DNA from: a virus
DNA: 42,717 nt
Virus record (IMG/VR): IMGVR_UViG_3300045988_152067
Span: 1 to 42,717 of that record
Strand: one strand, 5' to 3'
How positions within the stretch are numbered: the stretch's first letter is position 1; each line of letters opens with the position of its first letter. Both the position numbers and the translations under genes were made by a program. The notes below the pieces were generated by a model. The model was not told where the DNA came from. It saw only the letters and a list, made by a program, of their open reading frames with translations, and searched no databases. Shown here piece after piece: positions 1,086 through 41,358 of the stretch.

Positions 1086-1174
1086 TTGTGTTATATAACA
1101 TATATATTGTTTATATATATGTTATATATACTTTATATGTATTATATATTGCATTTCTATATATATGTTATATA
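1080..1174. repeat. Phased AT-rich repeats upstream of parA (candidate centromere/operator)
   Basis: TATATATTG at 1080, 1101 and 1143 (spacings 21 and 42 bp). TGTTATATA at 1089, 1120 and 1166. Confidence 0.5.
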
Positions 1175-1206
1175 ATATATATATACCACATATAAGGAGT
1201 GATATT

Positions 1207-1938
1207 ATGGAAATTATCTCTATAATCAATCAAAAAGGCGGAGTTGGAAAAACAACAACTGCCCAAAATTTAACAGCAGGTTTAAGATTGCAAAATAAAA
1301 AAGTATTATTGCTAGATTTAGATGCACAGTGCAATTTAACTTTATTACAGCAAGCAACTAAAAATACTCATGATATTTTAGATGTACTCACTGGCAAAGT
1401 AAAAATTGATGAAGCAATAGAAAATGATTTTATTGCTGGATCGAAAAATCTAGTTTTACTACAAAATAAATCTGGTATGGAATCTGTATTAAAAAACATA
1501 TTAAGCATGATGAAAAACAACTATGATTATGTAATTATAGATACTCCTCCAGCATTAGGAATAATTACATTAAATGCTTTGACTGCTAGTAATTCTATAA
1601 TAATTGCTACTACAGCAGATTTATTACCAATGCAAGGTTTAGTTGATTTATACAAAACTGTACAAGCTATACAAAAAACATCTAATAAAAATCTTAGTAT
1701 AAAAGGTATTTTAATAACTAGATTTAACAAACGAACTATATTAGGAAAATCTATGTTAAACAGTCTTATTGATATAGCAAAAAGATTAAATACAAAAGTA
1801 TTCAGTACTACAATAAGAGATAGCATTTCTATAAAAGAGTCCCAAGCAAAAATGACTGATATATTTAGATATGCTAGATATTCTACAGCTGGTCGAGATT
1901 ATAGATCATTAGTAAAAGAAATATTGGAGGATAAATAA
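1207..1938 (+). CDS. parA: ParA/Soj-family partition ATPase
   Basis: Deviant Walker A NQKGGVGKTTTA near the N-terminus. AAGGAGTG RBS sits 5 nt before the ATG at 1207 (the ORF track start at 1165 lacks an RBS). VIIDTPP Walker B-like strand. Confidence 0.9.
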   Translation: MEIISIINQKGGVGKTTTAQNLTAGLRLQNKKVLLLDLDAQCNLTLLQQATKNTHDILDVLTGKVKIDEAIENDFIAGSKNLVLLQNKSGMESVLKNILSMMKNNYDYVIIDTPPALGIITLNALTASNSIIIATTADLLPMQGLVDLYKTVQAIQKTSNKNLSIKGILITRFNKRTILGKSMLNSLIDIAKRLNTKVFSTTIRDSISIKESQAKMTDIFRYARYSTAGRDYRSLVKEILEDK

Positions 1939-3440: not shown

Positions 3441-3475
3441 AAAAAGGGCTGCTAAAGATAGCAGCTCTTTTTTTT
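3441..3475. terminator. Bidirectional terminator after the methyltransferase-like gene
   Basis: Stem gggctgct/agcagctc flanked by A5 and T8 runs. Confidence 0.75.
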
Positions 3476-4136
3476 ATATTCCAATTTTTATATTTACATT
3501 ATTATTAAATTTTTTTATTCGCTCTAGAAGAACCGCTAAACGTTTATAATTAAGTTCTGTACCAACAAATTTTTTATTGTTGATGTATGCATTATAGCCT
3601 ACTAAACCACGTCCCATACATAGATCACCTATACAATCATAATCTTCGTTGGAACATATCCATTTGATTATATCTTCTTCATCCATATAATCTAATTTTG
3701 GGGATCTTGCTTTATTAGCTCCTCGTACAACATAGCAAATTCTATCTTTATTATGATAATAACTACTGTTATAGAAGGTTACATATTTATATTTCTTCTT
3801 CATTTCCATTATAAATTCCGCCAGATATTGCTTTCCTATTTCAAGATAGCAAACCCTAGGATTTATATCATGAATGCACTCAAATAATCTTTTATAAAAG
3901 GCTTCATAATTAAAACAGATATGCTCTAAATCAGCCTTAGTATAAAAGGTATTTAAATTTCCCAAATTCCATGGTGAGTCTGTAAATATCATATCAGCAT
4001 TATGCATAAAATTGGGTAGCTGTTTAAAGATGTCATGCACCTTTAAAAAATTATTATCATCTACTGTGATAATAGAATTATTATTTATGTCAAAATCTTT
4101 ATAAGCACCGCCATAATCCCATTTACTCACCATCAA
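3474..4136 (-). CDS. Beta-class/MT-A70-like DNA methyltransferase-like protein with atypical motifs
   Basis: Motif IV-like ADMIFTDSPWNLG (DSPW rather than DPPY/W) precedes motif I-like GDLCMGRGLVG...FVGTELN. Motif IV before motif I is the beta-class order. Confidence 0.55.
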   Translation of the reverse strand: MMVSKWDYGGAYKDFDINNNSIITVDDNNFLKVHDIFKQLPNFMHNADMIFTDSPWNLGNLNTFYTKADLEHICFNYEAFYKRLFECIHDINPRVCYLEIGKQYLAEFIMEMKKKYKYVTFYNSSYYHNKDRICYVVRGANKARSPKLDYMDEEDIIKWICSNEDYDCIGDLCMGRGLVGYNAYINNKKFVGTELNYKRLAVLLERIKKFNNNVNIKIGI

Positions 4137-4659
4137 TCATCTCCCAACTTCTAGAATACTGTTGATTTTTAAATAGTTCTGCAATACCTGTAAGTTGTTT
4201 CAATCTGTGTACTTCTTCGATTTCCATACCTAGTTTTTTGGCAATTTCAATATCACTTACACCTTGTTCATGTAAAGCCCTTACTAAATCACTCATGCGT
4301 TCAGTTTGATGAACACCACGGGCTCTATTAAATTGAACAGTTGCTTCCATTCTTTTAGTTATACCATGATTTAAGACTATAATAGGGATTTCATCTGCTT
4401 CTAAATCTTTAAATTTGGTATATCTGTGGAATCCATCAATAATCACATATTTTTCTAAATCTGGATCCCAAATTGTAACTACTGCATAACAAAATCCATT
4501 TGACATAATTGACTCTTCAAGTAACTTCATATTATTTTTAGGCACTTCATTTGGATTATAATTATTAGCTTGTACTTTATCTATTGGTACAATTATTGGT
4601 GTCATGCATGGTAATTTAATTTCGCCTTTTTTAGTTTTTATTGTTTGTACTGTTTCCAT
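4123..4659 (-). CDS. ParB/Srx-domain protein (IbrB-like)
   Basis: IIDGFHRY (DGxHR ParB N-domain motif). The ATG at 4659 overlaps the upstream stop as TAATG and has a GGAG 8 nt upstream. The ORF track start at 4677 is also possible. Confidence 0.7.
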   Translation of the reverse strand: METVQTIKTKKGEIKLPCMTPIIVPIDKVQANNYNPNEVPKNNMKLLEESIMSNGFCYAVVTIWDPDLEKYVIIDGFHRYTKFKDLEADEIPIIVLNHGITKRMEATVQFNRARGVHQTERMSDLVRALHEQGVSDIEIAKKLGMEIEEVHRLKQLTGIAELFKNQQYSRSWEMIDGE

Positions 4660-5780
4660 TATAACAACTCCATCCATTTTTTTATTGTTGCTTCCCTTGG
4701 ATCAGGTTTATTATCTACTGGTAAATTATTTTCGTAATCATTCAATACTAGCTGTCGAACCTGCTGTCTAGCAACATAATTATTTTCTAAGTGTTTTGCA
4801 AACCTTTTCGCAAATATTTCTTTTTTCTCTTTATCTAGATATGTTTCTAATAGAAAATTTCTATAATCAATCCAGCTTTTAAAATTCTTCGGTAGCTTTC
4901 TACATTTCATTAATACATTATCTTTAGCGTATAGATTGGCTACACTAATTCCTTTTAATCTTTTAAGTAATTTATTGTAAGTTTTTGGTTCAAATTCTGG
5001 CAATTCTACAATAGCCTTAAAAGATTTTTCATGTATTAAACTAGATACTCTTATTTCTTGCAGTGGTATTCCTTTTTTCCACATCCAATCATATATCTTG
5101 TTATATCTAACCTTATTATCGTAGATATAACGCCATATATCAGAAAAATTCCAATCATATAGCGGATATGCTGTTATACAATTATTTTTTAATTTAGTAG
5201 TCCAATACCAATCTTTATGCCCAGGATTTTTTGAAACAGCTCGCCAACGATTAGGGCTTTCCGTAGCTCTTAATCCAACAAAGAAGCAAGTATCTTTTCT
5301 ATGACTTTGGAAATTATCTATAGCATCGTAAAATCCAAAGCCTTTAACTTTGTTTCTTACGGTTATAGTTTTTTTATCCCATGGTATATTTTGAATAGCT
5401 CTAGGATCTTTGGAACGCATCCAAATTTTATGCTTTCCTTTTTCCCAGCAGATGAGTTGGGACTCACTTAAACTGGTTGCATTAGTAAGATGAAAAGGTA
5501 TCTGATACCACAATGGAATACTATTTTTAGGGAACATATCAAACATGATATATTTAACCTGCTCAATAGTATTCTCATAATCCACCTCTTCATCTAAAAA
5601 GAAGATAGATGCTAACCTATTTCTTCTGTTAGCTTCTGACAACACTAGATGAGCTAATACTGTGCTATCTTTTCCGCCAGATATACTTACGCATACATTT
5701 TCAAAATCATCAAAGACTTTACTAATACGTTCTTTTGCAGATGTTAGCACATCTTTATTTATATAAATCTGCCTTAACAT
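4659..5780 (-). CDS. PAPS-reductase-fold PP-loop protein with a C-terminal extension (IbrA/DndC-like)
   Basis: PP-loop ISGGKDSTVL near the N-terminus. 373 aa. Paired with a ParB-domain gene, as in ibrA-ibrB. Confidence 0.7.
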   Translation of the reverse strand: MLRQIYINKDVLTSAKERISKVFDDFENVCVSISGGKDSTVLAHLVLSEANRRNRLASIFFLDEEVDYENTIEQVKYIMFDMFPKNSIPLWYQIPFHLTNATSLSESQLICWEKGKHKIWMRSKDPRAIQNIPWDKKTITVRNKVKGFGFYDAIDNFQSHRKDTCFFVGLRATESPNRWRAVSKNPGHKDWYWTTKLKNNCITAYPLYDWNFSDIWRYIYDNKVRYNKIYDWMWKKGIPLQEIRVSSLIHEKSFKAIVELPEFEPKTYNKLLKRLKGISVANLYAKDNVLMKCRKLPKNFKSWIDYRNFLLETYLDKEKKEIFAKRFAKHLENNYVARQQVRQLVLNDYENNLPVDNKPDPREATIKKWMELL

Positions 5781-8025
5781 AAAATTCCTCCAGTATTTTT
5801 ATCCATTCGGAATATTTATTGTAATACACATCATCAACCTTAAACCCAGAATGAATAAAGGTTAATTTTTGTATATTAGATTTTTTTACAAAATCATTAA
5901 ATATCATTTGTCTTATTGGAAAATCTACAATAAGACATTCCTGACTATTTATTACATCTTTGTAGGTTACTACATTTTCTTTTTTATACCTGTTAGTTCT
6001 AGCAACATAATATTTATCATCCGTTACTTTTTTTCTTTTCCCTGCAAACAAGTGCAGGTTTCTCGGAATAGTATTTGGATCTTTATTTCCTAAATTATCA
6101 AAAAGTTTTTCTTTTTCTTTTTCATATGCTAACAACTCTTTATCTGTAGGAGTAGCAGCATATCTTTTATCTAACTTAATATTTCTTTTTTTTACTCCAA
6201 TTGGATAATCTTTCAATAATTCATAATCAAAAGATTTATTTCTATATCTCCCATCATCAATAAAATCTAATAGAATCATGAAATCATTTAGATTATCAAT
6301 AATAGGGAAATACTCAAACACTAACTTATGGCTAGTTTGATGACAATAATGATGAGCACAATTATACGTTAAATCATTACGTTTTTTCACTCGCATACAT
6401 TCATCAAAAACTAGCAAATAATCATTATTTATCTTTTCTAGCAGTGGATAAAATGTACGATACATAATAATCTCACTATATTCAACAAACTCTGCATCAT
6501 ATTCTATTTTTTGCCATTTATCTGGATAAAATATGATTACATGTTTTATATTATTCTCTTTAACATAATTTTCAATTATAGTTTTTTTATCTGCATAACT
6601 ATAGCCGATATTTATTATGCCACTATTAAGATACATTTTTTTCATATCCTCCTCTTCAACAGTACGCCACCTATCTATTTCGTCTTTAAAAGACTTCAAT
6701 AGATTTTCTTTATTTATTAAACAATTTGCTATAAAAACATCTATGGTATATTTACAGCATATATCATAGATATTAACTATTTTTTCTTGCCCAATGCGGT
6801 GAATTCTATCTTCTGCCTGCAAGCGAGTTGCAAGGTCAAAATCGTTCGAGTAAAAAATTATGTTATGGCAAAATTGAAGATTTAACCCATAAGCACCACA
6901 TTGCTTATTGGCTAACATAAATTGAACATCATTTTTAAACTTTTCACGGTTCTCTTGTCTTTTCTTTTGACTTATTTTCCCTGTGAACTCAATATAATTT
7001 TTATTTTCACTTTGCAATAATAAAGCTATATCGTTTATTTCATCTTGGTATTTGGCAAAGATAATACATTTATCATTACCAATTTCTTCAAGGACTCTTT
7101 TTAAACATTGTATACGTGGATTATTTTCCCATGTATACATCTTTTCTGTACGCATCCGTTTTTCTGGTGCTGATAACACTCTCTTACCAGAAGTGATATG
7201 TTGCAATGCAGAAAAGAGTTTAAATATCGTTTCCGACCGCCAATCTACTACATTAAAAAGGAATAACTCTTTTGTTTCGTAATATTCCTCTTCTTGTAAA
7301 TCATCCAAACAAAAATATCGCATATGATATTCCTTTGGTTTAAGTTCTTTTAATACCTCATCTTTTTTTATTTGGTACATATATGGAGCTATCTTTTCTG
7401 TTAAATAGTCCACATTTAGAACTCTTATAATTTGGTCGGTCGTTATCTCTCTACCACTTGGAAGCCTTACTTTTTTATATTCCAAATGATTTGCAGCGAA
7501 ACTATAAAAAGACTTATATCCTAAAATCCGCCAATCTAAGATATACCATTGGGCGAATAAATCCGCCTCATTCTTAGATATTGGTGTACCATTTAATATC
7601 ATCTTGTATTTGCAAAAAGATGATATTGTTATTATTCTTTCCGTTCTTATAGCCAATTTATTTTTTACAAGGTTACTTTCATCAACAATCAGATAAACCT
7701 TATAATTTTTTACTAGCTCTAATAGCTGTAAATACAATCTGTCAGAACTAGACAAGCTTTCAATACCACGTATTATTATGTTGTTTTCCGTTGGTAAATC
7801 ACCTGTATGTTTTTCTATATCCTCTCTTAGATTGTTCTTTACTGAACATGGGCAAAGCCAAAGGATTACTTCAACTTTTCCTTTATCCAACTTCTTTCTA
7901 ACAATCTCTAAAGCTGTTCTTGTCTTTCCTGTGCCTTGCTCCATATACAAAGCACCAACTTTAAGCTTTGAAATCTTATCTACAGCTTTAGATTGATATT
8001 CATATAACTTTGTTTTCAAAATCAT
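5755..8025 (-). CDS. SNF2-family ATPase with an approximately 300-aa C-terminal domain of unknown function
   Basis: Walker A EQGTGKT, motif II LIVDESN, motif VI QAEDRIHRIGQ. I recognise no motif in residues from about 450 to 756. Confidence 0.85.
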   Translation of the reverse strand: MILKTKLYEYQSKAVDKISKLKVGALYMEQGTGKTRTALEIVRKKLDKGKVEVILWLCPCSVKNNLREDIEKHTGDLPTENNIIIRGIESLSSSDRLYLQLLELVKNYKVYLIVDESNLVKNKLAIRTERIITISSFCKYKMILNGTPISKNEADLFAQWYILDWRILGYKSFYSFAANHLEYKKVRLPSGREITTDQIIRVLNVDYLTEKIAPYMYQIKKDEVLKELKPKEYHMRYFCLDDLQEEEYYETKELFLFNVVDWRSETIFKLFSALQHITSGKRVLSAPEKRMRTEKMYTWENNPRIQCLKRVLEEIGNDKCIIFAKYQDEINDIALLLQSENKNYIEFTGKISQKKRQENREKFKNDVQFMLANKQCGAYGLNLQFCHNIIFYSNDFDLATRLQAEDRIHRIGQEKIVNIYDICCKYTIDVFIANCLINKENLLKSFKDEIDRWRTVEEEDMKKMYLNSGIINIGYSYADKKTIIENYVKENNIKHVIIFYPDKWQKIEYDAEFVEYSEIIMYRTFYPLLEKINNDYLLVFDECMRVKKRNDLTYNCAHHYCHQTSHKLVFEYFPIIDNLNDFMILLDFIDDGRYRNKSFDYELLKDYPIGVKKRNIKLDKRYAATPTDKELLAYEKEKEKLFDNLGNKDPNTIPRNLHLFAGKRKKVTDDKYYVARTNRYKKENVVTYKDVINSQECLIVDFPIRQMIFNDFVKKSNIQKLTFIHSGFKVDDVYYNKYSEWIKILEEFYVKADLYK

Positions 8026-8483
8026 ATAAATACCATCTTTAAATCATCTATTACCTTAGCTATATCGGCTAAAGTATATTTTTTCTCTTTAAACTTATTT
8101 AGACTTATGAGTTTTAATCTTTCTTTTAAATCGTCTAAATCGTAATTATAAAAAGGTTCTTCTGGATTATTTTTATAATATTTTATTTGGAATATTATAG
8201 CTGCTTTAGCTAGAATAAACGCTTCTTTTCTATTAAATGAAATATCTTCACTTGATACTTCATCTAGCAAAATAAATCCACTACGGAATTTATTTTGCTC
8301 TTTAATCATGTCTTTTAATTTTGATATGATTAAAGGCTCGAGGGCAGTGGGACGTGGTGAACGTCCCATTTCCCAAAACTCCCATGTAGATACTCCAACT
8401 CCTATTTTTTTAGCCATTTCTACCTGTGATAATCCTAATTCTAATCTTAATTTTTTTATTTCGTCTTTGAACAATTTAATCAT
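8022..8483 (-). CDS. XRE-type HTH protein
   Basis: LELGLSQVEMAKKIGVGVSTWEFWEMG helix-turn-helix. Start and stop overlap the neighbouring genes. Confidence 0.6.
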   Translation of the reverse strand: MIKLFKDEIKKLRLELGLSQVEMAKKIGVGVSTWEFWEMGRSPRPTALEPLIISKLKDMIKEQNKFRSGFILLDEVSSEDISFNRKEAFILAKAAIIFQIKYYKNNPEEPFYNYDLDDLKERLKLISLNKFKEKKYTLADIAKVIDDLKMVFI

Positions 8484-9483
8484 CCTTTAAATCTTCCAAA
8501 ACTTCCCTAGATGAATTTAAAATATCTTCTAGTTCTGTGTTTTGTTCTATTTTTATATTTGCTTCTTTTATACTTGTTTTTTTATGAGTTTTCTCTTCTT
8601 CTTCGGCTTCAGATAACAATTTTTCTGCTGGTGGTGTTATCTTAAAATCGTTCACTTTAGCGAAATCTCTTATTTCTGCATAATATCTTTCAGGAACAGT
8701 CATTCTGCCATTATCCCATTTAGCATGTGGGAGTCTTTTGGCTTTTCTGTATAACTCATCCCCATTAAAGAGAATGCTTATTTTATTATCACTCATATTT
8801 TTAGTTATCCAACGGAAACATTCTTTTTCATAGTCTCCGTTTATGGCTTTTTTGCGAATAGCTTCATCCCAAATTATGATTGGGACTCCAGCCAGTAAAA
8901 GTTTATTTCCGACTTCTGCTATTCGATCAATAACATCTCTTTTGTATGGCACTGTTTCACGATACCATACTTTACCAGACCAATCATAATGTAGACTTTT
9001 TACAGTGTTGATTACGATTTGGTCTTTTTCAGATTTTACTTTCACTTCATTATTTTCTTCATCAAAAATAATTTCTGCAACGACCTTAGTTTTTTGGTCG
9101 TTTGGATATGTTGTTGATGAAGATTTTGCTTCATCAATAACACTCTTTTCTTTTGGTTCTTCAAAATAAAGAGTGCTTTCGATTAGTCTCTTGAATTGAA
9201 GATAATCTTTTTCTCTATGTTCAATCCAAAAACTAGCTTTATCTTTAGATAAGATAAAGCGTTCAGCCTTTTTAATAACTTCTTCATCCATTTCAATGAA
9301 GTATAAGCCTTTTTTAGAATTGAAAGCATAATACATAATTAGGTTTCTTGTTACCTTAGCCCTAATTTTATTTGCCCATTCTACTTGTTTTGGGCTTCCA
9401 GATAATGGAGCAATTTTATCTAAATTATCGCTAAAATTTTCAGCTATATTCATTATTTCATCAGAAAACATTTCAACTTTCAT
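8476..9483 (-). CDS. Hypothetical 335-aa protein, first gene of the SNF2 operon
   Basis: Long ORF with AAAGGAG RBS and an acidic C-terminus. No motif recognised apart from GSPKQVEWANKIR. Confidence 0.5.
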   Translation of the reverse strand: MKVEMFSDEIMNIAENFSDNLDKIAPLSGSPKQVEWANKIRAKVTRNLIMYYAFNSKKGLYFIEMDEEVIKKAERFILSKDKASFWIEHREKDYLQFKRLIESTLYFEEPKEKSVIDEAKSSSTTYPNDQKTKVVAEIIFDEENNEVKVKSEKDQIVINTVKSLHYDWSGKVWYRETVPYKRDVIDRIAEVGNKLLLAGVPIIIWDEAIRKKAINGDYEKECFRWITKNMSDNKISILFNGDELYRKAKRLPHAKWDNGRMTVPERYYAEIRDFAKVNDFKITPPAEKLLSEAEEEEKTHKKTSIKEANIKIEQNTELEDILNSSREVLEDLKDD

Positions 9484-9506
9484 TTTTATTTATCTCCTTT
9501 ACTTTT

Positions 9507-9546
9507 CCCGCAAGCAAAGGTATACTTAAAGTATCTCGCTTGCGGG
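9507..9546 (-). promoter_or_regulatory. Long imperfect hairpin in the leader of the 8476..9483 operon
   Basis: 9-bp GC-rich arms cccgcaagc/gcttgcggg enclose an inner atact/agtat stem. Located 24 nt upstream of the start codon. Confidence 0.4.
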
Positions 9547-9564
9547 ATATTGACAATCACTTAT

Positions 9565-9600
9565 GAGCTTAGGTAGTGCCATTACCTAGGCTCTTTTTTT
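9565..9600 (+). terminator. Hairpin plus T7, oriented to stop + strand (antisense) transcription
   Basis: 11-bp stem gagcttaggta/tacctaggctc (the G-U is valid on + only) followed by T7. There is no T run on the - strand side. Confidence 0.5.
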
Positions 9601-9606
9601 ATTGTT

Positions 9607-9804
9607 TTAATCATGATAATTTGTTTTTTCAAATATCAATTTATCATTATCATAAATTGATAAACTCCATTCTTCTTGTCTACTTTCTTTTTCTGTTTCA
9701 CTTATTAATTCTTTAATTAAACTATTTGTACATTGTTCAGTATACTGTATAGCCGTATCAACTAATTTTCCATCACTATACCATTTTTGTTCTATCTTTA
9801 TCAT
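9607..9804 (-). CDS. Hypothetical protein
   Basis: 65-aa ORF abutting the upstream gene. Confidence 0.5.
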   Translation of the reverse strand: MIKIEQKWYSDGKLVDTAIQYTEQCTNSLIKELISETEKESRQEEWSLSIYDNDKLIFEKTNYHD

Positions 9805-10023
9805 TTATTTTTCCTCTTCTGATGTCCAAATAAAATCTGCAATTTGTTTTTGTTGCTCAGGTTCTATTACTTTTCCTTCAATTAATACATCTATTTTAAT
9901 AACCATAAATGTATCATTAAAGTTTTTAGTACTTTCATTAGCTAATATTTTTTTAGCTTCTTTTAAACTATTAGTTTCTTTTTTAAAACCATTTGTAGAT
10001 TTTACTATATATCTTGTTTTCAT
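9805..10023 (-). CDS. Hypothetical protein
   Basis: 72-aa ORF, tightly packed in the same three-gene operon. Confidence 0.5.
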   Translation of the reverse strand: MKTRYIVKSTNGFKKETNSLKEAKKILANESTKNFNDTFMVIKIDVLIEGKVIEPEQQKQIADFIWTSEEEK

Positions 10024-10024
10024 A

Positions 10025-10360
10025 TTATTTATCTCCTACAAACTCTTCTAAAACTCTTTTGTTTTTACCTATAACAAATAAATATTTCAACAATTTTGGA
10101 CAGTCATTTAAACAAATTGCTGTTTCTCTGTCCTCTTTTTTATTTTTTTTGGATGTAAATACCATAAAAGCCCCTTTTCTTCCAATTAAGCAAGATATAT
10201 AAGCTTCTACATTATCTGCAATATTTTTGCGATTAACATATACAGATACAATAACACTATATATATTATTTGTATCTTTTTCTCCTAATATAACTTTTAC
10301 TTTTGCCCCTCTTGAGCTTACAAATTTAAAAGTTCTTTTTACTTTAATACCTTTTCTCAT
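10025..10360 (-). CDS. Hypothetical basic protein
   Basis: 111-aa ORF with AGAGGGA RBS. First gene behind the consensus promoter at 10474-10502. Confidence 0.55.
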   Translation of the reverse strand: MRKGIKVKRTFKFVSSRGAKVKVILGEKDTNNIYSVIVSVYVNRKNIADNVEAYISCLIGRKGAFMVFTSKKNKKEDRETAICLNDCPKLLKYLFVIGKNKRVLEEFVGDK

Positions 10361-10383
10361 GTTTATCCCTCTTTATTTTTATT

Positions 10384-10437
10384 TTGGTTGCCACCCAATC
10401 ATAGGCTATAAATTTAAATACTTTGGTTGCTACCCAA
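10384..10437. promoter_or_regulatory. Two copies of a 15-bp imperfect palindrome TTGGTTGC(C/T)ACCCAA (operator candidates)
   Basis: Copies at 10384-10398 and 10423-10437, 39 bp apart, between the promoter and the start codon at 10360. Confidence 0.55.
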
Positions 10438-10473: not shown

Positions 10474-10502
10474 ATTATACCCTCCTTGAGAGGGTATGTC
10501 AA
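10474..10502 (-). promoter_or_regulatory. Perfect consensus promoter TTGACA-17-TATAAT whose spacer is a 7-bp-arm palindrome
   Basis: Reverse complement reads TTGACA taccctctcaaggaggg TATAAT. taccctc/gagggta form the palindrome. Confidence 0.75.
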
Positions 10503-10526: not shown

Positions 10527-10560
10527 CAAAAAAATAAGCCCTACCTTTATTGGTAGGGCT
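10527..10560 (-). terminator. Intrinsic terminator after 10565..11086
   Basis: 9-bp stem agccctacc/ggtagggct with a T-rich run on the - strand (ttattttttt). Confidence 0.8.
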
Positions 10561-10564
10561 TTAT

Positions 10565-29058: not shown

Positions 29059-30897
29059 TTATTTACCTTCATTTTTAATAATTCCACGTTTATCAATCAC
29101 ATTTACGCCATAATCCATATAAATTCTAAAGTCCATACCAAGATTTGTGAAAGATACTCTAGAATCTATTGTTGGTGTATCTTTACCATTTAAATATGTT
29201 ACTTCAATGACTGGAGCAAGCATTGGATCTGCTACTACATACCAAGCTTTATTACTATAGCTATCTAATTCACCATCTACAATTAATCTAAGATTATTAT
29301 TAAATGGATTTACAACACCACTATTTTTACCTTCTGGATCTGATGTAGATTTTAATAATTGCTGTGCTAATGTTTCTAATTCTGCTGGAACAATTAATGC
29401 ATATGGCATTAAATTTAATGTTGTTTTTTCATCTACACCTTTTTGTGTTCTTAAAAGTTTTCTTGCTTCACCGAGGCTTGTTACACTTAAAGCACCTGCT
29501 GTTCCTTTATTTTCTGCTTCAAGAGTTAATCCACTAAGTGTTTTATATACAAGTTTATTAATACCATATTTAGCAGCATAAGCATAAGATTGTGGAATTT
29601 TAGATAAAGCACTCAAATCATCATTGATTATTGCTTGTCTAGATAAAGACCAAGAACGTCCAAAGGTTAATACAGAAGCAGTTGCTTCTTCTTCTGTGAA
29701 CTTACTAGCTGTAAATTCTCCGTTTTCTTTAATTTCTACTAATTCTTGTGCTTCAGACAATCTGTAACGTTTAGCTGCTTTAAAATCTGTATTATTGCCT
29801 TTTCCTGTCCATGCTTCAAATGTAGTATTAGCTAGCTGATAAGATTTTGCCAAAGATTTATTGGCTACATTACTTAAAATACCAGGTAATTCACCTGTAC
29901 CAATCATGGTAGTGCGTAAAAGCATCTCTGTATCTTTCATTCGTGCATTAGTATCGCCAGCTTTTTCTGCACAAATTACAAGATAATCTCTTAAACCCAT
30001 TCCCATCATGTTTTGGCTACCTTCTGCTGGTTTTTCTACTCTAACTCCTGCTCTTAAAAGCAATGCATCTGTAGCTACTTCTCTAAATTTTTCTCTTTCT
30101 TCTGTACCGACTTGAACTCTTGTCGTATTAGAAGGCTTATTACTATTTTTTAATCTTTCTAAAATAGCATGTTCCACATCTTGTACAGATTTGTTTTCTC
30201 TAATAAATTTATCTATTTCTTCTGCTTCCAAATTAAAATTTCTGCCTAATGTGTTTATCTGTAAAATTCTTTCTTGTTCTGCTCTTTTAATATTCTCACT
30301 ATTTTCTGTTACATTTGTATTTGGTTCTACATTTGTTTTTGGATCTACTGGATTATTCATGTTATTTTCTCCTCCTAAACTTCTTCCTACTCCTACTTCA
30401 TTATCTGCTGGAACAGATACAATAGATATTTCGTATACGCTCCAACGCACTGCTACATATGCTGGGCCTGCAAATTTTCCGTTAGTAGATACAGAATTTG
30501 CTTGTACTTCTTCCCAATTATTAACAACATAACCAACAGATACTCCTCTTAAAGTTCCATTTTTTACCTTGTTAAAAATAGCATCAGACTCATCATCTTC
30601 ATCAAATTGAACTTCTGCTTTTGCCTTACTATCTTCTATCCATGTTCGCAATACTTTACCTATTACTCTATTGCTGTTGTGATTGAAAAGTAGGCAACAA
30701 AGACCATTATCTACTCTTTGCATATCCACAGAACTTTCATCAATTTGCAAGATTTCATTGCCATACCAACGGCTTACTGGTGCTTCAGAAGCAAAAGATA
30801 ATGTTACTGTTCGCTGTTCCTCATTTACAGCACTATCAATTATTATTTCCCTCTGTTGCATCAGAGCTGTTTGTGTCGGATTTTTTTGATTTTCCAT
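29059..30897 (-). CDS. Prohead protease fused to the major capsid protein
   Basis: 612 aa. The N-terminal ~180 aa resemble the HK97 U35 prohead protease (TLSFASE...LLFNHN...GVSVGY), then a low-complexity linker, then a ~330-aa capsid-like C-terminus. Confidence 0.65.
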   Translation of the reverse strand: MENQKNPTQTALMQQREIIIDSAVNEEQRTVTLSFASEAPVSRWYGNEILQIDESSVDMQRVDNGLCCLLFNHNSNRVIGKVLRTWIEDSKAKAEVQFDEDDESDAIFNKVKNGTLRGVSVGYVVNNWEEVQANSVSTNGKFAGPAYVAVRWSVYEISIVSVPADNEVGVGRSLGGENNMNNPVDPKTNVEPNTNVTENSENIKRAEQERILQINTLGRNFNLEAEEIDKFIRENKSVQDVEHAILERLKNSNKPSNTTRVQVGTEEREKFREVATDALLLRAGVRVEKPAEGSQNMMGMGLRDYLVICAEKAGDTNARMKDTEMLLRTTMIGTGELPGILSNVANKSLAKSYQLANTTFEAWTGKGNNTDFKAAKRYRLSEAQELVEIKENGEFTASKFTEEEATASVLTFGRSWSLSRQAIINDDLSALSKIPQSYAYAAKYGINKLVYKTLSGLTLEAENKGTAGALSVTSLGEARKLLRTQKGVDEKTTLNLMPYALIVPAELETLAQQLLKSTSDPEGKNSGVVNPFNNNLRLIVDGELDSYSNKAWYVVADPMLAPVIEVTYLNGKDTPTIDSRVSFTNLGMDFRIYMDYGVNVIDKRGIIKNEGK

Positions 30898-32541: not shown

Positions 32542-34359
32542 TTATTCATCCCCTTTCAATTTGTCTAAATGTCTTACATGCATTAAATCTGCTGCCAAAC
32601 TTGCATATACTTCACAATCCCAGTAGTGATTTTTGGCATGGCTTGTTTTTGGTACCCATGTATAAGTTTCATGATTATTTTTTATTTCTACTACTTTATG
32701 CTCACTTGTCATTTGTTCGGCGTATTCTATTTCTATATCTGCATGGAACATAAAAGCACCATACTTATACATTGGTCTTTGCATTTGTGATGCTATAACA
32801 TCTTTGTATTTATCTACATTTACTAAATAAATAGTTTGCCCTAGACCTGCTTTAGTTTCTGTAGCATTTACATTATCTATTACCTTTTTTCTAAATCTGC
32901 TTTCAGATTTTAAATTAAATTCACCTTTACACGGCAAAACTATATTTCCCATTTGGCTTTGTATCTGCAGACAATAATCGTATACTTCTTCTGTTCTATA
33001 ACCACTATCTATTAAACATAAATCTATTAGCCATTTTGGTTCCCCATTTGTATCACAAAACTTTTTATCTAGTAGTTCTGTTAGTTCATCAAAATTTTTT
33101 AAAGAACCATATAAGATATTTTGGCTTACTACACCATATCCCCATGCACGTACTACAAAATAAAGATTGTTTTTCTGTACGTCCACACCACAAGTAATAA
33201 GCTGTGTAAAATCTGGAACACAACCTTCTTGCAATTCTGTTCTTCTTGCAAATATTTGGTCTGTTTCCAATGCTGAAGCTGTATCTTCATATGGCATACC
33301 TAGCCAAGAATTCACAAAGTTTTGCATATCTACTGGATCATTTTTGCTGGCCAGAAATTCTCCAGCCACATCACCGAAAGTAAGCCATGGCGAATAGATA
33401 GAATTAATATGAAATGCTACAGATTTTGCATGGCCAACTGTTTTATTTTCTGCAATCCATTTGCCACGTTTTAGCATCTGCATTTTATGTCGGTCATCAA
33501 TTCGACCGCCACATTTATTGCATACATAATAAGCAGCAGACCTTGCTAAAGTTATATCATTTTCCCCTTTTTCATTTTTTGGCCACTTGATATTATTTAG
33601 CTCAAACGTCTGATATTCTCCACAATGTGGGCATGGCACATAATAATGATATCTTTTATCTGCTTTTTCCCAGGCTATCCATATTGGGCCACTCTTGAAA
33701 ACTGGTGTAGATGTTTTAAAAATCTTTGCATTAAAGCGGTTTTTAGTTCTTTCTTCTGCTAATTTTAACGGACTAGCTTCTTTTTTAGCCTTTTTAGGGA
33801 ACTTTTCTATTTCATCTAATAAAATATACCTACTAGACCAGCTTGCTAACTTAGAAGGAGATTGAGCCGAAGCAAAGAATATAAATCCGCCATTAAACTT
33901 TAAAAGCGTATCTTTACTTTCATATTCATTAAACTTTTCTTTTAAAATCGGTGAACTATCTAGCATTTTTTGCAGTCTAAGTTCAGAAAAGTCTTTGCAA
34001 AACGTATCGTCAGGTAGTACATAAATAATTCTGTTAGGATTTTGGTCTATGATATACCCAACTATATTTAATAATGCTTCTGTACCGCCAATTTGAGTAC
34101 ATTTTAAAAATACAATTTCTTTTATATGCTCATCATTAAAGCTGTCCATTATCTTTTTTAGATATGGAACATTTGCTGTTTCCCATGGTCCTGGTTTATC
34201 TGTTTCATCTGCAGATAAAATTCTATTCTTATCTGCCCATTGGCTAACAGTTAATTTTTCTGGTGGCTTAAATGTTTGCATAGCCATAGCAATTATCTTA
34301 TCTAAAGTCTGCTTAGAGCTATTACTTCTTCCTACTAGCTCCTGTCTTTGCAAGTTCAT
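32542..34359 (-). CDS. Terminase large subunit (lambda GpA family)
   Basis: 605 aa. Walker-like GGTEAL, DE motif ILLDEIE, zinc ribbon CPHCG...CNKCG. Confidence 0.85.
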   Translation of the reverse strand: MNLQRQELVGRSNSSKQTLDKIIAMAMQTFKPPEKLTVSQWADKNRILSADETDKPGPWETANVPYLKKIMDSFNDEHIKEIVFLKCTQIGGTEALLNIVGYIIDQNPNRIIYVLPDDTFCKDFSELRLQKMLDSSPILKEKFNEYESKDTLLKFNGGFIFFASAQSPSKLASWSSRYILLDEIEKFPKKAKKEASPLKLAEERTKNRFNAKIFKTSTPVFKSGPIWIAWEKADKRYHYYVPCPHCGEYQTFELNNIKWPKNEKGENDITLARSAAYYVCNKCGGRIDDRHKMQMLKRGKWIAENKTVGHAKSVAFHINSIYSPWLTFGDVAGEFLASKNDPVDMQNFVNSWLGMPYEDTASALETDQIFARRTELQEGCVPDFTQLITCGVDVQKNNLYFVVRAWGYGVVSQNILYGSLKNFDELTELLDKKFCDTNGEPKWLIDLCLIDSGYRTEEVYDYCLQIQSQMGNIVLPCKGEFNLKSESRFRKKVIDNVNATETKAGLGQTIYLVNVDKYKDVIASQMQRPMYKYGAFMFHADIEIEYAEQMTSEHKVVEIKNNHETYTWVPKTSHAKNHYWDCEVYASLAADLMHVRHLDKLKGDE

Positions 34360-40167: not shown

Positions 40168-40511
40168 GCGATATCACTCTTTCTACCTGTCCTTGCATAA
40201 AATTTATACTCTGCAAGTTTCTGTATATATACCATGTCAGGATAATAAGCCTTTACTATCCCATAACTTAATTCAGTTCTTTTTGATATCTCCCTAAACT
40301 TACAAATAAAATCATTACCTCTTCTTATTTTTAATTTTCTCTGTTCTATTCTCTCCTTTCTCTTCTTTAAAAATTCTCTTAACATCTTATTTTTTCTCAA
40401 TCTCTTGCATTCACTTGAACAGCATTTAATACGTGAACTTGTTGTTTTAAATGTTGCACCGCAATATTCACATTTTTTCTCTATTATCTTGGGCTTATAC
40501 AATTTATTCAC
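40164..40511 (-). CDS. Zinc-ribbon basic protein
   Basis: CEYCG...CCSSEC followed by a Lys/Arg-rich helix. Confidence 0.45.
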   Translation of the reverse strand: MNKLYKPKIIEKKCEYCGATFKTTSSRIKCCSSECKRLRKNKMLREFLKKRKERIEQRKLKIRRGNDFICKFREISKRTELSYGIVKAYYPDMVYIQKLAEYKFYARTGRKSDIA

Positions 40512-41358
40512 CCCAATCTTCTATTACCTCTGGTACATCTATATTTTCCAAAGGCTTTCGATATTTGCTTTTCTTAAACTTCTGATACTGGCTATCTATT
40601 CTATACATGGTTATTCTTTGTACCCTGCAACATTCATAGTAACCGCCATTATCTGCCCAGCCATAGCCATCATAAATAGAGTTTTTATCTATGATGTAGC
40701 CTTTTGGGGCTTTTTTTGTTGCCATGTTCCACCATCTATTATTTTTTATAACTTTGGTGGTTACTAATGGCATTTTTAAATTTTTAGATGCACAAAATCT
40801 TTTCTTATGCACCTTTTCCTTTCTGTAGAATTGCTCCCTACTGTTTTTTATTAAGTAAGAAGCCAGCTTTTTATATTCCCCACTGTAATCTAAATGTCTT
40901 ATCGTTACTCTTGGGTATTTACATTCTTCTGTACCAACTATTCTTTGCCATGCTTTAGTTAGTACATCTGTATCGAGCTTGTTCATCACAATATGAAAGT
41001 GAATCATACCTTTTTTTGTGATACCAGCCACATAAATATACTTGAGCTTTTTTTCTTCTCGCTTGTATATTCTTCTTACTGTGTCCAAAAATGTATTTAT
41101 ATTTTTTCTGGCCACATCTATATCTACTTTTTGATGTGGTGGATAATTTAGCGTTAAGAATAAATCTCCACCTTCAAAATTTTCATTTAACTTATACCTA
41201 CAGATACGCTCTGCTTTTTTATCTTGATAGCGTAGCTGTTTTAATGGTGTCTTACCTAGTGCAGGGCCATTAGGTATATTCTTTCCATATCTACCACTAT
41301 AATATTGGTAGTAGTCTATATAATTTTTTCCATATACCTTTTTCTGCACTAGTGCCAT
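40504..41358 (-). CDS. rep: HUH-superfamily rolling-circle replication initiator (Rep)
   Basis: Motif 1 FLTLNY, motif 2 MIHFHIVMN (HUH), motif 3 KLASYLIKN (catalytic Tyr). AAGGAGG RBS. Confidence 0.8.
   Translation of the reverse strand: MALVQKKVYGKNYIDYYQYYSGRYGKNIPNGPALGKTPLKQLRYQDKKAERICRYKLNENFEGGDLFLTLNYPPHQKVDIDVARKNINTFLDTVRRIYKREEKKLKYIYVAGITKKGMIHFHIVMNKLDTDVLTKAWQRIVGTEECKYPRVTIRHLDYSGEYKKLASYLIKNSREQFYRKEKVHKKRFCASKNLKMPLVTTKVIKNNRWWNMATKKAPKGYIIDKNSIYDGYGWADNGGYYECCRVQRITMYRIDSQYQKFKKSKYRKPLENIDVPEVIEDWGE

Follow-up and report, generated by a model that had tools for sequence, protein, structure and literature searches.

The 42,717-nucleotide (nt) viral sequence analysed here, referred to as the window, is IMG/VR virus record IMGVR_UViG_3300045988_152067 at its full length (positions 1 to 42,717). 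On its minus strand, positions 3474-9483 carry a six-gene cassette that combines an SNF2-family motor with an IbrA-like PP-loop enzyme, an IbrB-like ParB/Srx-domain protein, and a beta-class methyltransferase-like protein. With a probability of about 0.5, the products of this cassette form a multi-subunit machine that uses ATP and S-adenosylmethionine (SAM) and chemically modifies double-stranded DNA (dsDNA), most likely the element's own DNA for counter-defence. This reading builds on the domain identities of the proteins, a gene order conserved among relatives, fusion proteins that join the motor parts, and an IbrA that lacks a conserved cysteine.

Organization of the cassette

Six minus-strand open reading frames (ORFs) overlap by 8, 4, 26, 19 (or 1), and 14 (or 11) nt. 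For the last two overlaps, Shine-Dalgarno-like sequences favour internal ATG starts at 4659 and 4133, which shorten them to 1 and 11 nt. The coupled layout described in the first-pass annotation of this DNA is borne out by the ORF list, by a scan for ribosome-binding sites, and by the gene calls of four independent metagenome contigs carrying the same element. Likewise, every motif listed there (GTGKT, DESN, QAEDRIHRIGQ, SGGKDST, and DGFHRY) occurs in the translations, and profile searches place each protein in the family claimed for it rather than in an unrelated one. Its count of four core components has to be amended: the four named parts are present, while a fifth conserved protein, termed pseudo-SNF2 here, is hidden in the "SNF2" ORF. 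The features of the cassette are as follows (lengths in amino acids, aa).

8476..9483, minus strand: 335-aa protein, putative accessory protein of the motor module
8022..8483, minus strand: HTH_3 (Xre-type) helix-turn-helix (HTH) protein, 153 aa (Pfam HTH_3)
5755..8025, minus strand: 756-aa SNF2 and pseudo-SNF2 fusion ORF (ORF list)
6634..8025, minus strand: SNF2-family ATPase, aa 1-464 of the 756-aa ORF (Pfam, phrog_62)
5755..6633, minus strand: pseudo-SNF2 module, aa 465-756 of the 756-aa ORF (AlphaFold2, Foldseek, hhalign)
4659..5780, minus strand: IbrA-like PP-loop ATP pyrophosphatase, 373 aa (PAPS_reduct and DUF3440)
4123..4677, minus strand: IbrB-like ParB/Srx-domain protein, 184 aa, or 178 aa from the likely start, ATG 4659 (ParB_N)
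3474..4136, minus strand: beta-class methyltransferase-like protein, 220 aa from TTG or 219 aa from ATG (family profile)

Gene order is conserved and motor parts are fused in relatives

Related loci were collected with the methyltransferase profile as bait, 68 from IMG/VR and 34 from GTDB genomes, and the 71 distinct loci with at least 5.2 kilobases (kb) of sequence upstream of the methyltransferase were taken as informative. In 62 of these 71, the methyltransferase is immediately preceded by pseudo-SNF2, IbrA, and IbrB, arranged as in the window. SNF2 is present in 49 of the 62, and 41 of these 49 SNF2-type loci carry a homologue of the 335-aa protein directly upstream of SNF2. This synteny supports the earlier view of one functional cassette acting on DNA. 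Median identity to the window proteins is 67% for IbrA (82 loci), 64% for IbrB, and 57% for the methyltransferase, and amounts to 42% for pseudo-SNF2, 39% for SNF2, and 31% for the 335-aa protein. The cassettes come from viral metagenomes and prophages of several phyla, with host labels comprising Clostridia, Bacilli, Synergistaceae, Bacteroidota, Acidobacteriota, Lentisphaeria, Desulfobulbales, and methanotrophic Gammaproteobacteria. Enzyme identity of such height across phyla suggests a universal substrate such as DNA. Searches of phage and plasmid collections for DNA nearly identical to the 6-kb region gave no match.

The motor parts are physically linked through fusion proteins. An exhaustive HMMER search revealed SNF2-pseudo-SNF2 fusions of 787 aa (P0303) and 630 aa (P0416), while in P0304 (1144 aa) SNF2 and pseudo-SNF2 share one chain with the 335-aa protein, whose ...DLKDD tail is included. 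In a further protein (P0379), an N-terminal domain of ~200 aa is joined to pseudo-SNF2. One locus (L054, 6614-9624) displays a reduced cassette made up of the 335-aa protein, SNF2, and the methyltransferase, without pseudo-SNF2, IbrA, and IbrB.

Among cultured bacteria, the full cassette occurs in prophages of Caldicoprobacter algeriensis, Clostridium luticellarii DSM 29923, Anaerobacterium chartisolvens DSM 27016, and Pelotomaculum propionicicum. Prophage cassettes lie in the early region just before the terminase, beside counter-defence genes and not within lysogeny modules. The counter-defence-type neighbours in related phage contigs are Tad3 anti-Thoeris, Lar_restr_allev, MazG, and the N-terminal domain of a dGTP diphosphohydrolase-like protein; sites of such genes are L007 11460-11963, L008 11334-11804, and L003 1-2986. 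The same cassette is found amid housekeeping genes (mfd and his genes) on the 3.78-Mb contig L006 (GCA_900198705.1), with gene coordinates identical to those in the phage contigs L007 and L008; it could be a stand-alone island or an assembly chimera.

Simpler arrangements occur in cultured phages. In the Flavobacterium phages FCL-2, which is lytic, and 1H, SNF2 adjoins IbrA/IbrB between the terminase and portal genes, and SNF2 also adjoins IbrA/IbrB in Streptococcus phage Bsingle. The mycobacteriophages Gaia and Gadjet carry the IbrA-IbrB pair without a recognisable SNF2 neighbour. In Gadjet (gp4-gp6; L118 1069-4471), the pair immediately precedes the large terminase, in the usual position of the small terminase, and in Gaia gp104 (L117 5302-6201), an IbrB-type ParB domain is joined to an ectoine-synthase-like cupin domain.

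An SNF2 motor carries a predicted ATPase-dead paralogue

The SNF2 protein matches SNF2-rel_dom (E 2.8e-15) and Helicase_C (E 2e-16), both over the curated Pfam cut-offs, and phrog_62 "DNA helicase" of PHROG (E 2e-87). Motif I reads GTGKT, motif II DESN, and motif VI QAEDRIHRIGQ; residues G31/G33/K34, D115/E116, and R407/R410/G412/Q413 are conserved to at least 95% across the homologues.

The 756-aa ORF corresponds to two proteins of other loci. Residues 1-451 share 52% identity with a stand-alone 472-aa SNF2 in a Geobacillus prophage, and residues 470-755 share 42-49% (E 1e-75 to 1e-90) with a separate protein of ~290 aa, which is encoded between SNF2 and IbrA and has no Pfam domain. A word-indexed search returned 289 homologues of this pseudo-SNF2, nearly all of ~290 aa, while a HMMER search of 1.84 billion cluster representatives gave 221 clusters, 144 of them at E <= 1e-30. 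Pseudo-SNF2 is a gene of its own in 56/56 other distinct loci checked, and the fusion is stable in the window lineage, as judged from the sister contigs. An assembly error was considered and rejected: the fusion is identical in four independent assemblies.

The AlphaFold2 model of pseudo-SNF2 (predicted local distance difference test, pLDDT, 94) adopts a two-lobe SF2-like fold. Its best Foldseek matches in PDB and BFVD are SNF2/SF2 ATPase cores (E down to 7e-8), including CSB, Chd1, DDM1, ISWI, and phage SNF2 helicases. Moreover, hhalign aligns the module to the cassette's own SNF2 profile (E 9e-5), pairing FDECMRVKKR with VDESNLVKNK in motif II and FEYFPI with LNGTPI in motif III. Motif II-like FDEC and motif III-like FEYFP are thus retained in pseudo-SNF2; no GxGKT of the Walker A motif (motif I) was found in it, and the alignment to the SNF2 profile begins past the P-loop. 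As the module starts after the Walker A position, we classify pseudo-SNF2 as a predicted ATPase-dead SNF2 paralogue rather than an active family member.

IbrA lacks a conserved cysteine

IbrA matches PAPS_reduct (PF01507; E 1.2e-15, 58 bits versus a cut-off of 22.5), carries a C-terminal DUF3440 (PF11922; E 2.8e-9, 37.4 bits versus 25), and aligns over its full length to phrog_2302 (E 3e-88). The PP-loop SGGKDST is invariant in 82 homologues, and the motifs GLRAxES and YPLxDW are kept as well. In the same 82 sequences, no cysteine is conserved to 90% or more. The top columns stand at 73% and 85%, and the second-best of them has no cysteine in the window protein; a catalytic cysteine of the ECGLH type is absent from IbrA. 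Against the CysH family TIGR00434, IbrA scores 25 bits versus a cut-off of 165, and all its scores lie far under the cut-offs of the DndC and CysH families. The remaining matches are weak (DndC E 7e-7 and BrxP E 2e-6 in PADLOC; CysD/CysH in NCBIfam) or remote (CysD E 3e-3 in a sequence search of PDB). By tblastn, 223 of 50,697 deposited phage genomes match IbrA at 25-36% identity. Because it has no conserved cysteine, thiol chemistry of the CysH type and Fe-S or persulfide chemistry of the DndC/SspD type are disfavoured, and judging from its sequence, an adenylating ATP pyrophosphatase is the better description of IbrA.

IbrB, whose gene is coupled to that of IbrA by 1 or 19 nt, matches ParB_N (E 5.6e-8, 33.2 bits versus a cut-off of 26.3) and contains the conserved motifs DGxHR, YNPN, and NxARGxH. 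It carries DGFHR where ParB partition CTPases have the GERRxR CTP-binding box, resembling the serine kinases SbnI and SerK and the DGQHR type of DndB. The nearest solved or curated relatives are indeed the ParB/Srx-fold serine kinases SbnI and SerK (SbnI E 4e-3 in the PDB sequence search); further, IbrB matches the ParB part of phrog_498 "DNA methyltransferase" (E 1e-12). With DGFHR in place of the CTP-binding box, an assignment of IbrB as ParB partition protein is rejected; the element's own ParA (1165-1938) belongs to a separate, divergent unit.

A beta-class methyltransferase-like protein completes the cassette

The sixth protein belongs to a family of at least 1213 clusters, and many of its homologues at 60-69% identity carry PF01555. 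The family profile matches the beta-class adenine methyltransferase 5hek in PDB (E 1.4e-3), with motif IV and motif I aligned to DPPY and DPFMGSG of 5hek, and the family consensus DPPW...DLCMGRG...FVGTELN aligns to DpnA-type adenine methyltransferases; PADLOC assigns MTase_II (E 2.6e-6). Motif IV precedes motif I, the circular permutation seen in beta-class amino-methyltransferases. DPPW/DSPW (53-56), the SAM-loop motif DLCMGRG (171-177), and the FVGTE acidic loop (190-194) are all conserved; D53, P55, G175, G177, and E194 are invariant in the family, and W56 occurs in ~92%. The canonical DPPW is found in 113/120 and 72/85 homologues. Neither this protein nor pseudo-SNF2 has a tblastn match in the 50,697 deposited phages, and the sole plasmid match of the methyltransferase is Fusobacterium varium pFV113-g1-2.

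The 335-aa protein is a cassette member, whereas the HTH gene is an insert

The 335-aa protein and the HTH protein had both been listed as operon genes, which holds for the window. In relatives, the two differ: by homology, the former is a conserved cassette member, and the latter appears as a lineage-specific insert. In the 335-aa protein, an alpha/beta domain occupies the centre, a GS/TEKQxxWAxxIR helix is conserved, and the acidic C-terminal tail, ILNSSREVLEDLKDD, is invariant. Most homologues have an N-terminal CxxC...CxxC zinc ribbon, which the window copy lacks. Its AlphaFold2 model is moderate (pLDDT 78) and yields no significant match in PDB; the best one, the N-terminal region of XPB/Ssl2 (E 0.09), is a lead only.

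The 153-aa HTH protein, an HTH_3 match over the cut-off (E 4e-8), probably regulates the operon, as its domain suggests. A gene at its position (8022-8483), between the 335-aa gene and SNF2, was not found in other loci, while HTH_3 genes recur adjoining the cassette there. One homologue (P0112) is an HTH-methyltransferase fusion.

A type IV-B CRISPR-Cas-like block takes the place of the motor in some relatives

At least eight related loci lack SNF2 and the 335-aa protein and have in their place a type IV-B CRISPR-Cas-like block, which consists of csf1 (E 8.5e-7), a 127-aa cas11-like gene, csf2 (E 3e-14), csf3 (E 5e-15), and a gene for a 232-aa CysH-like PP-loop protein. In several of them, the block lies directly upstream of pseudo-SNF2-IbrA-IbrB-methyltransferase with tight spacing. 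The csf genes of L003, the Caldicoprobacter algeriensis prophage, match TIGR03114, TIGR03115, and TIGR03116 (E 9e-7 to 5e-15). Loci with the block are L003 (4264-10711), L015, L020, L022, L045, L055-L057, L063, and L107. The window itself contains no csf1, csf2, csf3, or cas11 in its ORF list or in profile scans.

The function of type IV-B systems and the role of their CysH-like partner have been reviewed as unknown (PMC8175902, PMC7038947). This partner, CasCysH, has a PP-loop and misses the catalytic cysteine (PMC8175902), in which it is like the IbrA of the cassette. The type IV-B literature examined makes no mention of an IbrA-IbrB-methyltransferase enzyme core. We tentatively suggest that this core, together with pseudo-SNF2 as adaptor, might write a non-sulfur, adenylation-activated mark carrying a SAM-derived group, delivered either by SNF2 or by Csf-CasCysH.

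The cassette is flanked by its own transcription signals

Upstream and downstream of the genes, the following elements were found.

10536..10561, both strands: bidirectional terminator-like hairpin, 10-bp stem with 6 GC pairs, T-runs on both strands
10474..10502, minus strand: sigma-70-type promoter TTGACA-17-TATAAT, 12/12 matches (sequence scan)
10383..10437, minus strand: two 16-nt direct repeats TTGGGTRGCAACCAAA inside the 5' untranslated region
9607..10360, minus strand: three small ORFs (111, 72, and 65 aa) between promoter and leader (ORF list, sequences like ribosome-binding sites)
9484..9606, minus strand: structured leader, hairpins 9565-9593 and 9507-9546, followed by an AAGGAG ribosome-binding site
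3441..3472, both strands: bidirectional terminator-like hairpin directly 3' of the last gene

The leader had been noted before and is confirmed: its two hairpins give a minimum free energy of -38.6 kcal/mol (z = -6.1 versus shuffled sequences), and an Rfam scan found no family for it, nor for any other part of the window. The operon had been described as lying behind this leader; from the sequence, transcription probably begins ~1 kb further upstream, at the consensus promoter (10502-10474). A 19-nt perfect palindrome, TACCCTCTCAAGGAGGGTA (10478-10496), covers the promoter spacer and the -10 hexamer; it occurs once in the window, where 0 copies are expected by chance, and looks like an operator. 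The repeat TTGGGTRGCAACCAAA has 2 matches versus 0.05 expected, with no further copy in the window, and may provide protein-binding sites. The three small ORFs probably share the transcript with the cassette; they are also kept in the same element on other contigs, and none matched a PHROG family. The upstream hairpin separates the cassette transcription unit from upstream late or accessory genes. With its own promoter and palindrome and terminator-like hairpins at both ends, the cassette is an autonomous unit of ~7 kb, not merely the tail of a late operon, and is probably under repressor control.

The carrier is a phage-plasmid-like element

The window represents a nearly complete phage genome of ~43-44 kb, which looks like a circular phage-plasmid. 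It encodes a GpA-type large terminase, a lambda-type portal, tail and baseplate proteins, a spanin-like lysis gene, RecU, Rep, and ParA. Genes referred to below are as follows.

32542-34359: large terminase, about 23 kb from the cassette
1165-1938, plus strand: ParA, in a divergent unit; a 228-aa gene is also on the plus strand
40504-41358: Rep protein; the Rep/RecU genes lie ~30 kb from the cassette

A prohead serine protease domain (Peptidase_S78) and a major capsid protein domain form a single 612-aa ORF at 29059-30897. Sister contigs contain a repressor-type HTH gene, which in the window would run across the two ends. Among the window ORFs scanned, none was an integrase; on a 74-kb sister contig, a PTS gene adjoins the element, which may integrate. 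The host is probably a gut Negativicute, because the nearest named homologues of the 335-aa protein come from Megamonas funiformis (87% identity) and Selenomonas.

Relation to known systems

The IbrA/IbrB pair is known from E. coli, where IbrA/IbrB of the ECOR-9 island and YbdN/YbdM of K-12 form the same coupled pair of a PAPS_reduct and DUF3440 protein followed by a small ParB/Srx protein. The E. coli pair stands alone under a LysR regulator, whereas the window pair has an SNF2 motor module on one side and a methyltransferase on the other. The ECOR-9 genes are reportedly known genetically only, as activator of prophage eib genes.

The combination of a PP-loop enzyme with a ParB-like protein is likewise known as a theme: Dnd, Ssp, and BREX type 4 use such pairs on DNA (PMC12839542, PMC10853773). 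As in the cassette, DndC/DndB, SspD/SspB, and BREX type 4 BrxP-DUF4007 pair an ATP pyrophosphatase of the PAPS-reductase fold with a partner of the ParB superfamily. Unlike in Dnd and Ssp, IbrA has neither conserved cysteines nor Fe-S ligands, and the cassette contains an SNF2 motor and a methyltransferase instead.

SNF2 together with a methylase is the second known theme. In counter-restriction proteins of phages and plasmids, ParB, adenine methylase, and SNF2 domains are repeatedly combined (PMC5512222): ParB-adenine methylase fusions and "polyvalent" SNF2/methylase/ParB proteins of phages and conjugative elements draw on these three domain types and are assumed to counteract host restriction (PMC5512222). 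Unlike the polyvalent proteins, the cassette consists of separate coupled genes, adds a PP-loop enzyme, pseudo-SNF2, and the 335-aa protein, and has no protease or injection-related domain. The 7-deazaguanine DNA-modification/restriction system Dpd (DpdA/DpdB with the SNF2 protein DpdE) and DISARM (the SNF2 protein DrmD with the methylase DrmMI) are DNA-marking systems in which an SNF2-family helicase likewise works beside a ParB-like ATPase or a methylase. The best PADLOC match of the cassette SNF2 is DpdE (E 2e-22), with scores that cover the generic helicase core only; the cassette contains no DpdA transglycosylase, DrmA/B/C, or other signature genes. PADLOC found no complete DISARM, BREX, Dpd, Zorya, or Dnd set, only generic helicase-core and weak DndC/BrxP matches. 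Compared with type IV-B modules, finally, the window has no csf genes, while the csf1-cas11-csf2-csf3-cysH-like block stands in the SNF2/335-aa place of its relatives.

A literature search gave no paper on the chemistry of the cassette, in agreement with the earlier statement that a demonstrated chemistry is missing, and no functional work on the cassette or phage IbrAB; what it gave on ybdNM concerned regulation. The six-part cassette, its pseudo-SNF2 and 335-aa parts, an IbrA with no conserved cysteine, and the exchange of the motor for type IV-B are undescribed in the literature we found.

Proposed function and alternatives

We infer DNA as the substrate, as well as the sequence of enzymatic steps, the kind of mark, and its protective role. 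The motor module, comprising the 335-aa protein, SNF2, and pseudo-SNF2, would load on dsDNA, track along it, and carry or hand the DNA to IbrB, IbrA, and the methyltransferase. IbrB, with its ParB/Srx fold, would probably act as nucleoside-triphosphate-dependent DNA clamp, nickase, or phosphotransferase, while IbrA would activate the target group by adenylation, with no sulfur relay. The DPPW-type beta-class methyltransferase would then flip the base and transfer a SAM-derived group. The resulting mark on phage or plasmid DNA, and possibly on host DNA too, would need ATP and SAM, and may guard against host restriction or defence or tell self DNA apart. Timing of expression would be set by the HTH protein and the promoter palindrome, and in some relatives the motor would be exchangeable for a Csf ribonucleoprotein. 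Modification of the element's own DNA for counter-defence is favoured because of the Tad3, Lar, MazG, and dGTP diphosphohydrolase-like neighbours in relatives, because a simpler SNF2-IbrA-IbrB module occurs in a lytic phage, and because ParB, adenine methylase, and SNF2 partner in counter-restriction proteins.

Several points weigh against this reading. The sixth protein reaches no threshold in Pfam or NCBIfam and has no match there, and the window copy carries DSPW, a minority variant (2/120 and 6/85 homologues, also in other lineages). ParB/Srx domains can be kinases or nucleases, not DNA clamps. Sandt et al. 2002 reportedly describe E. coli IbrAB as genetic activators of prophage gene expression, not as modification enzymes. 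Further, the cassette is a moron-like unit beside the ParA/repressor region with its own promoter and terminators, a layout that would also fit a defence system expressed during lysogeny.

The main competing explanation, which we consider unlikely, is such a system: restriction-modification-type defence or exclusion, carried by a prophage or plasmid and similar to DISARM, BREX, or Dpd. Here, the methyltransferase would mark resident DNA, SNF2 and a ParB-fold nickase (with IbrA) would attack or block unmarked incoming DNA, and the HTH protein would serve as controller (C) protein. The autonomous unit with its 12/12 sigma-70 promoter, operator-like palindrome, and flanking terminators beside the ParA/repressor region is consistent with it, as are the best defence-library matches of SNF2 (DpdE, ZorD, and DrmD), the nickase activity known for some ParB domains (PMC5512222), and the recurrence of HTH_3 genes adjoining the cassette. 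It is opposed by the PADLOC analysis, which matched no system, by the lack of a canonical nuclease effector, and by genomic position: the simpler SNF2-IbrB-IbrA module sits between terminase and portal of the lytic phage FCL-2, and prophage cassettes occupy the early region near counter-defence genes, not lysogeny modules. Less probable still is a regulatory role like that of E. coli IbrAB, in which SNF2 would work on RNA polymerase or nucleoid proteins in a RapA-like manner and the enzymes would mark DNA or a factor, turning on late or prophage genes. The shared IbrA/IbrB architecture, the SEED subsystem name for IbrA/IbrB, the dedicated LysR repressor of the E. coli homologues ybdNM (PMC9068703), and a weak NCBIfam match linking SNF2 to RapA and a "pilus expression-regulating Snf2 helicase" point in this direction. 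So does the fact that packaging or late genes closely follow the cassette in several phages; in the window, however, the cassette is the last unit, downstream of late genes. A dedicated DNA-methyltransferase-like enzyme and the high conservation of the enzymes between phyla, despite differing promoters and hosts, argue against regulation as well.

A role in replication, recombination, repair, or packaging, which appears improbable, would have SNF2 anneal or branch-migrate DNA, the ParB protein act as nickase or small-terminase-like recogniser, and IbrA adenylate DNA ends. It would account for the phrog_62 "DNA helicase" match, for the position of IbrA-IbrB, directly before the large terminase (Gadjet) or flanked by TerL and portal (Flavobacterium phages), and for Sak4 and helicase genes near the module in Streptococcus phage Bsingle. 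However, the distance of the window cassette from the terminase (~23 kb) and from Rep/RecU (~30 kb) does not fit, the methyltransferase-like enzyme is an obligate partner in the cassette clade, and a type IV-B Csf complex, which has no replication function, takes the place of SNF2 in some loci. Most improbable of all is sulfur chemistry, either Dnd/Ssp-like phosphorothioation or IbrA as an auxiliary sulfate-assimilation (CysH) gene. The PAPS-reductase fold and PP-loop of IbrA, its weak DndC, BrxP, and CysD/CysH matches, and its pairing with a ParB-fold protein like that of DndB/DndC and SspB/SspD would be compatible with it. Thus, the likeness to DndC raised in the first-pass annotation stands as far as the fold is concerned, while the analogy is weak: cysteines of the conserved or ECGLH type are missing, family scores are far under the cut-offs, and no cysteine desulfurase (DndA/SspA), DndD/DndE, or SspC was found in the operon or the scanned window ORFs, some small ORFs being outside the scan. 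Both Dnd-like phosphorothioation and CysH-type sulfate reduction are rejected on these grounds.

Implications

IbrA/IbrB-type genes are common in phages, where they are usually annotated as sulfur metabolism genes or "ParB partition proteins". The present analysis places IbrA/IbrB in a motor-coupled enzyme cassette whose enzymes are ~60-70% identical across bacterial phyla. Cultured phage and bacterial carriers exist, which makes experiments feasible now. The Csf module in the place of SNF2 offers a testable handle on type IV-B function; if the tentative proposal of a common enzyme core holds true, type IV-B "CRISPR-Cas" systems would be carriers of an epigenetic writer, not nucleases. If the product of the cassette is a new DNA mark, it would be an addition to the catalogue of phage anti-restriction chemistry and a possible tool, a motor-coupled and possibly processive DNA writer.

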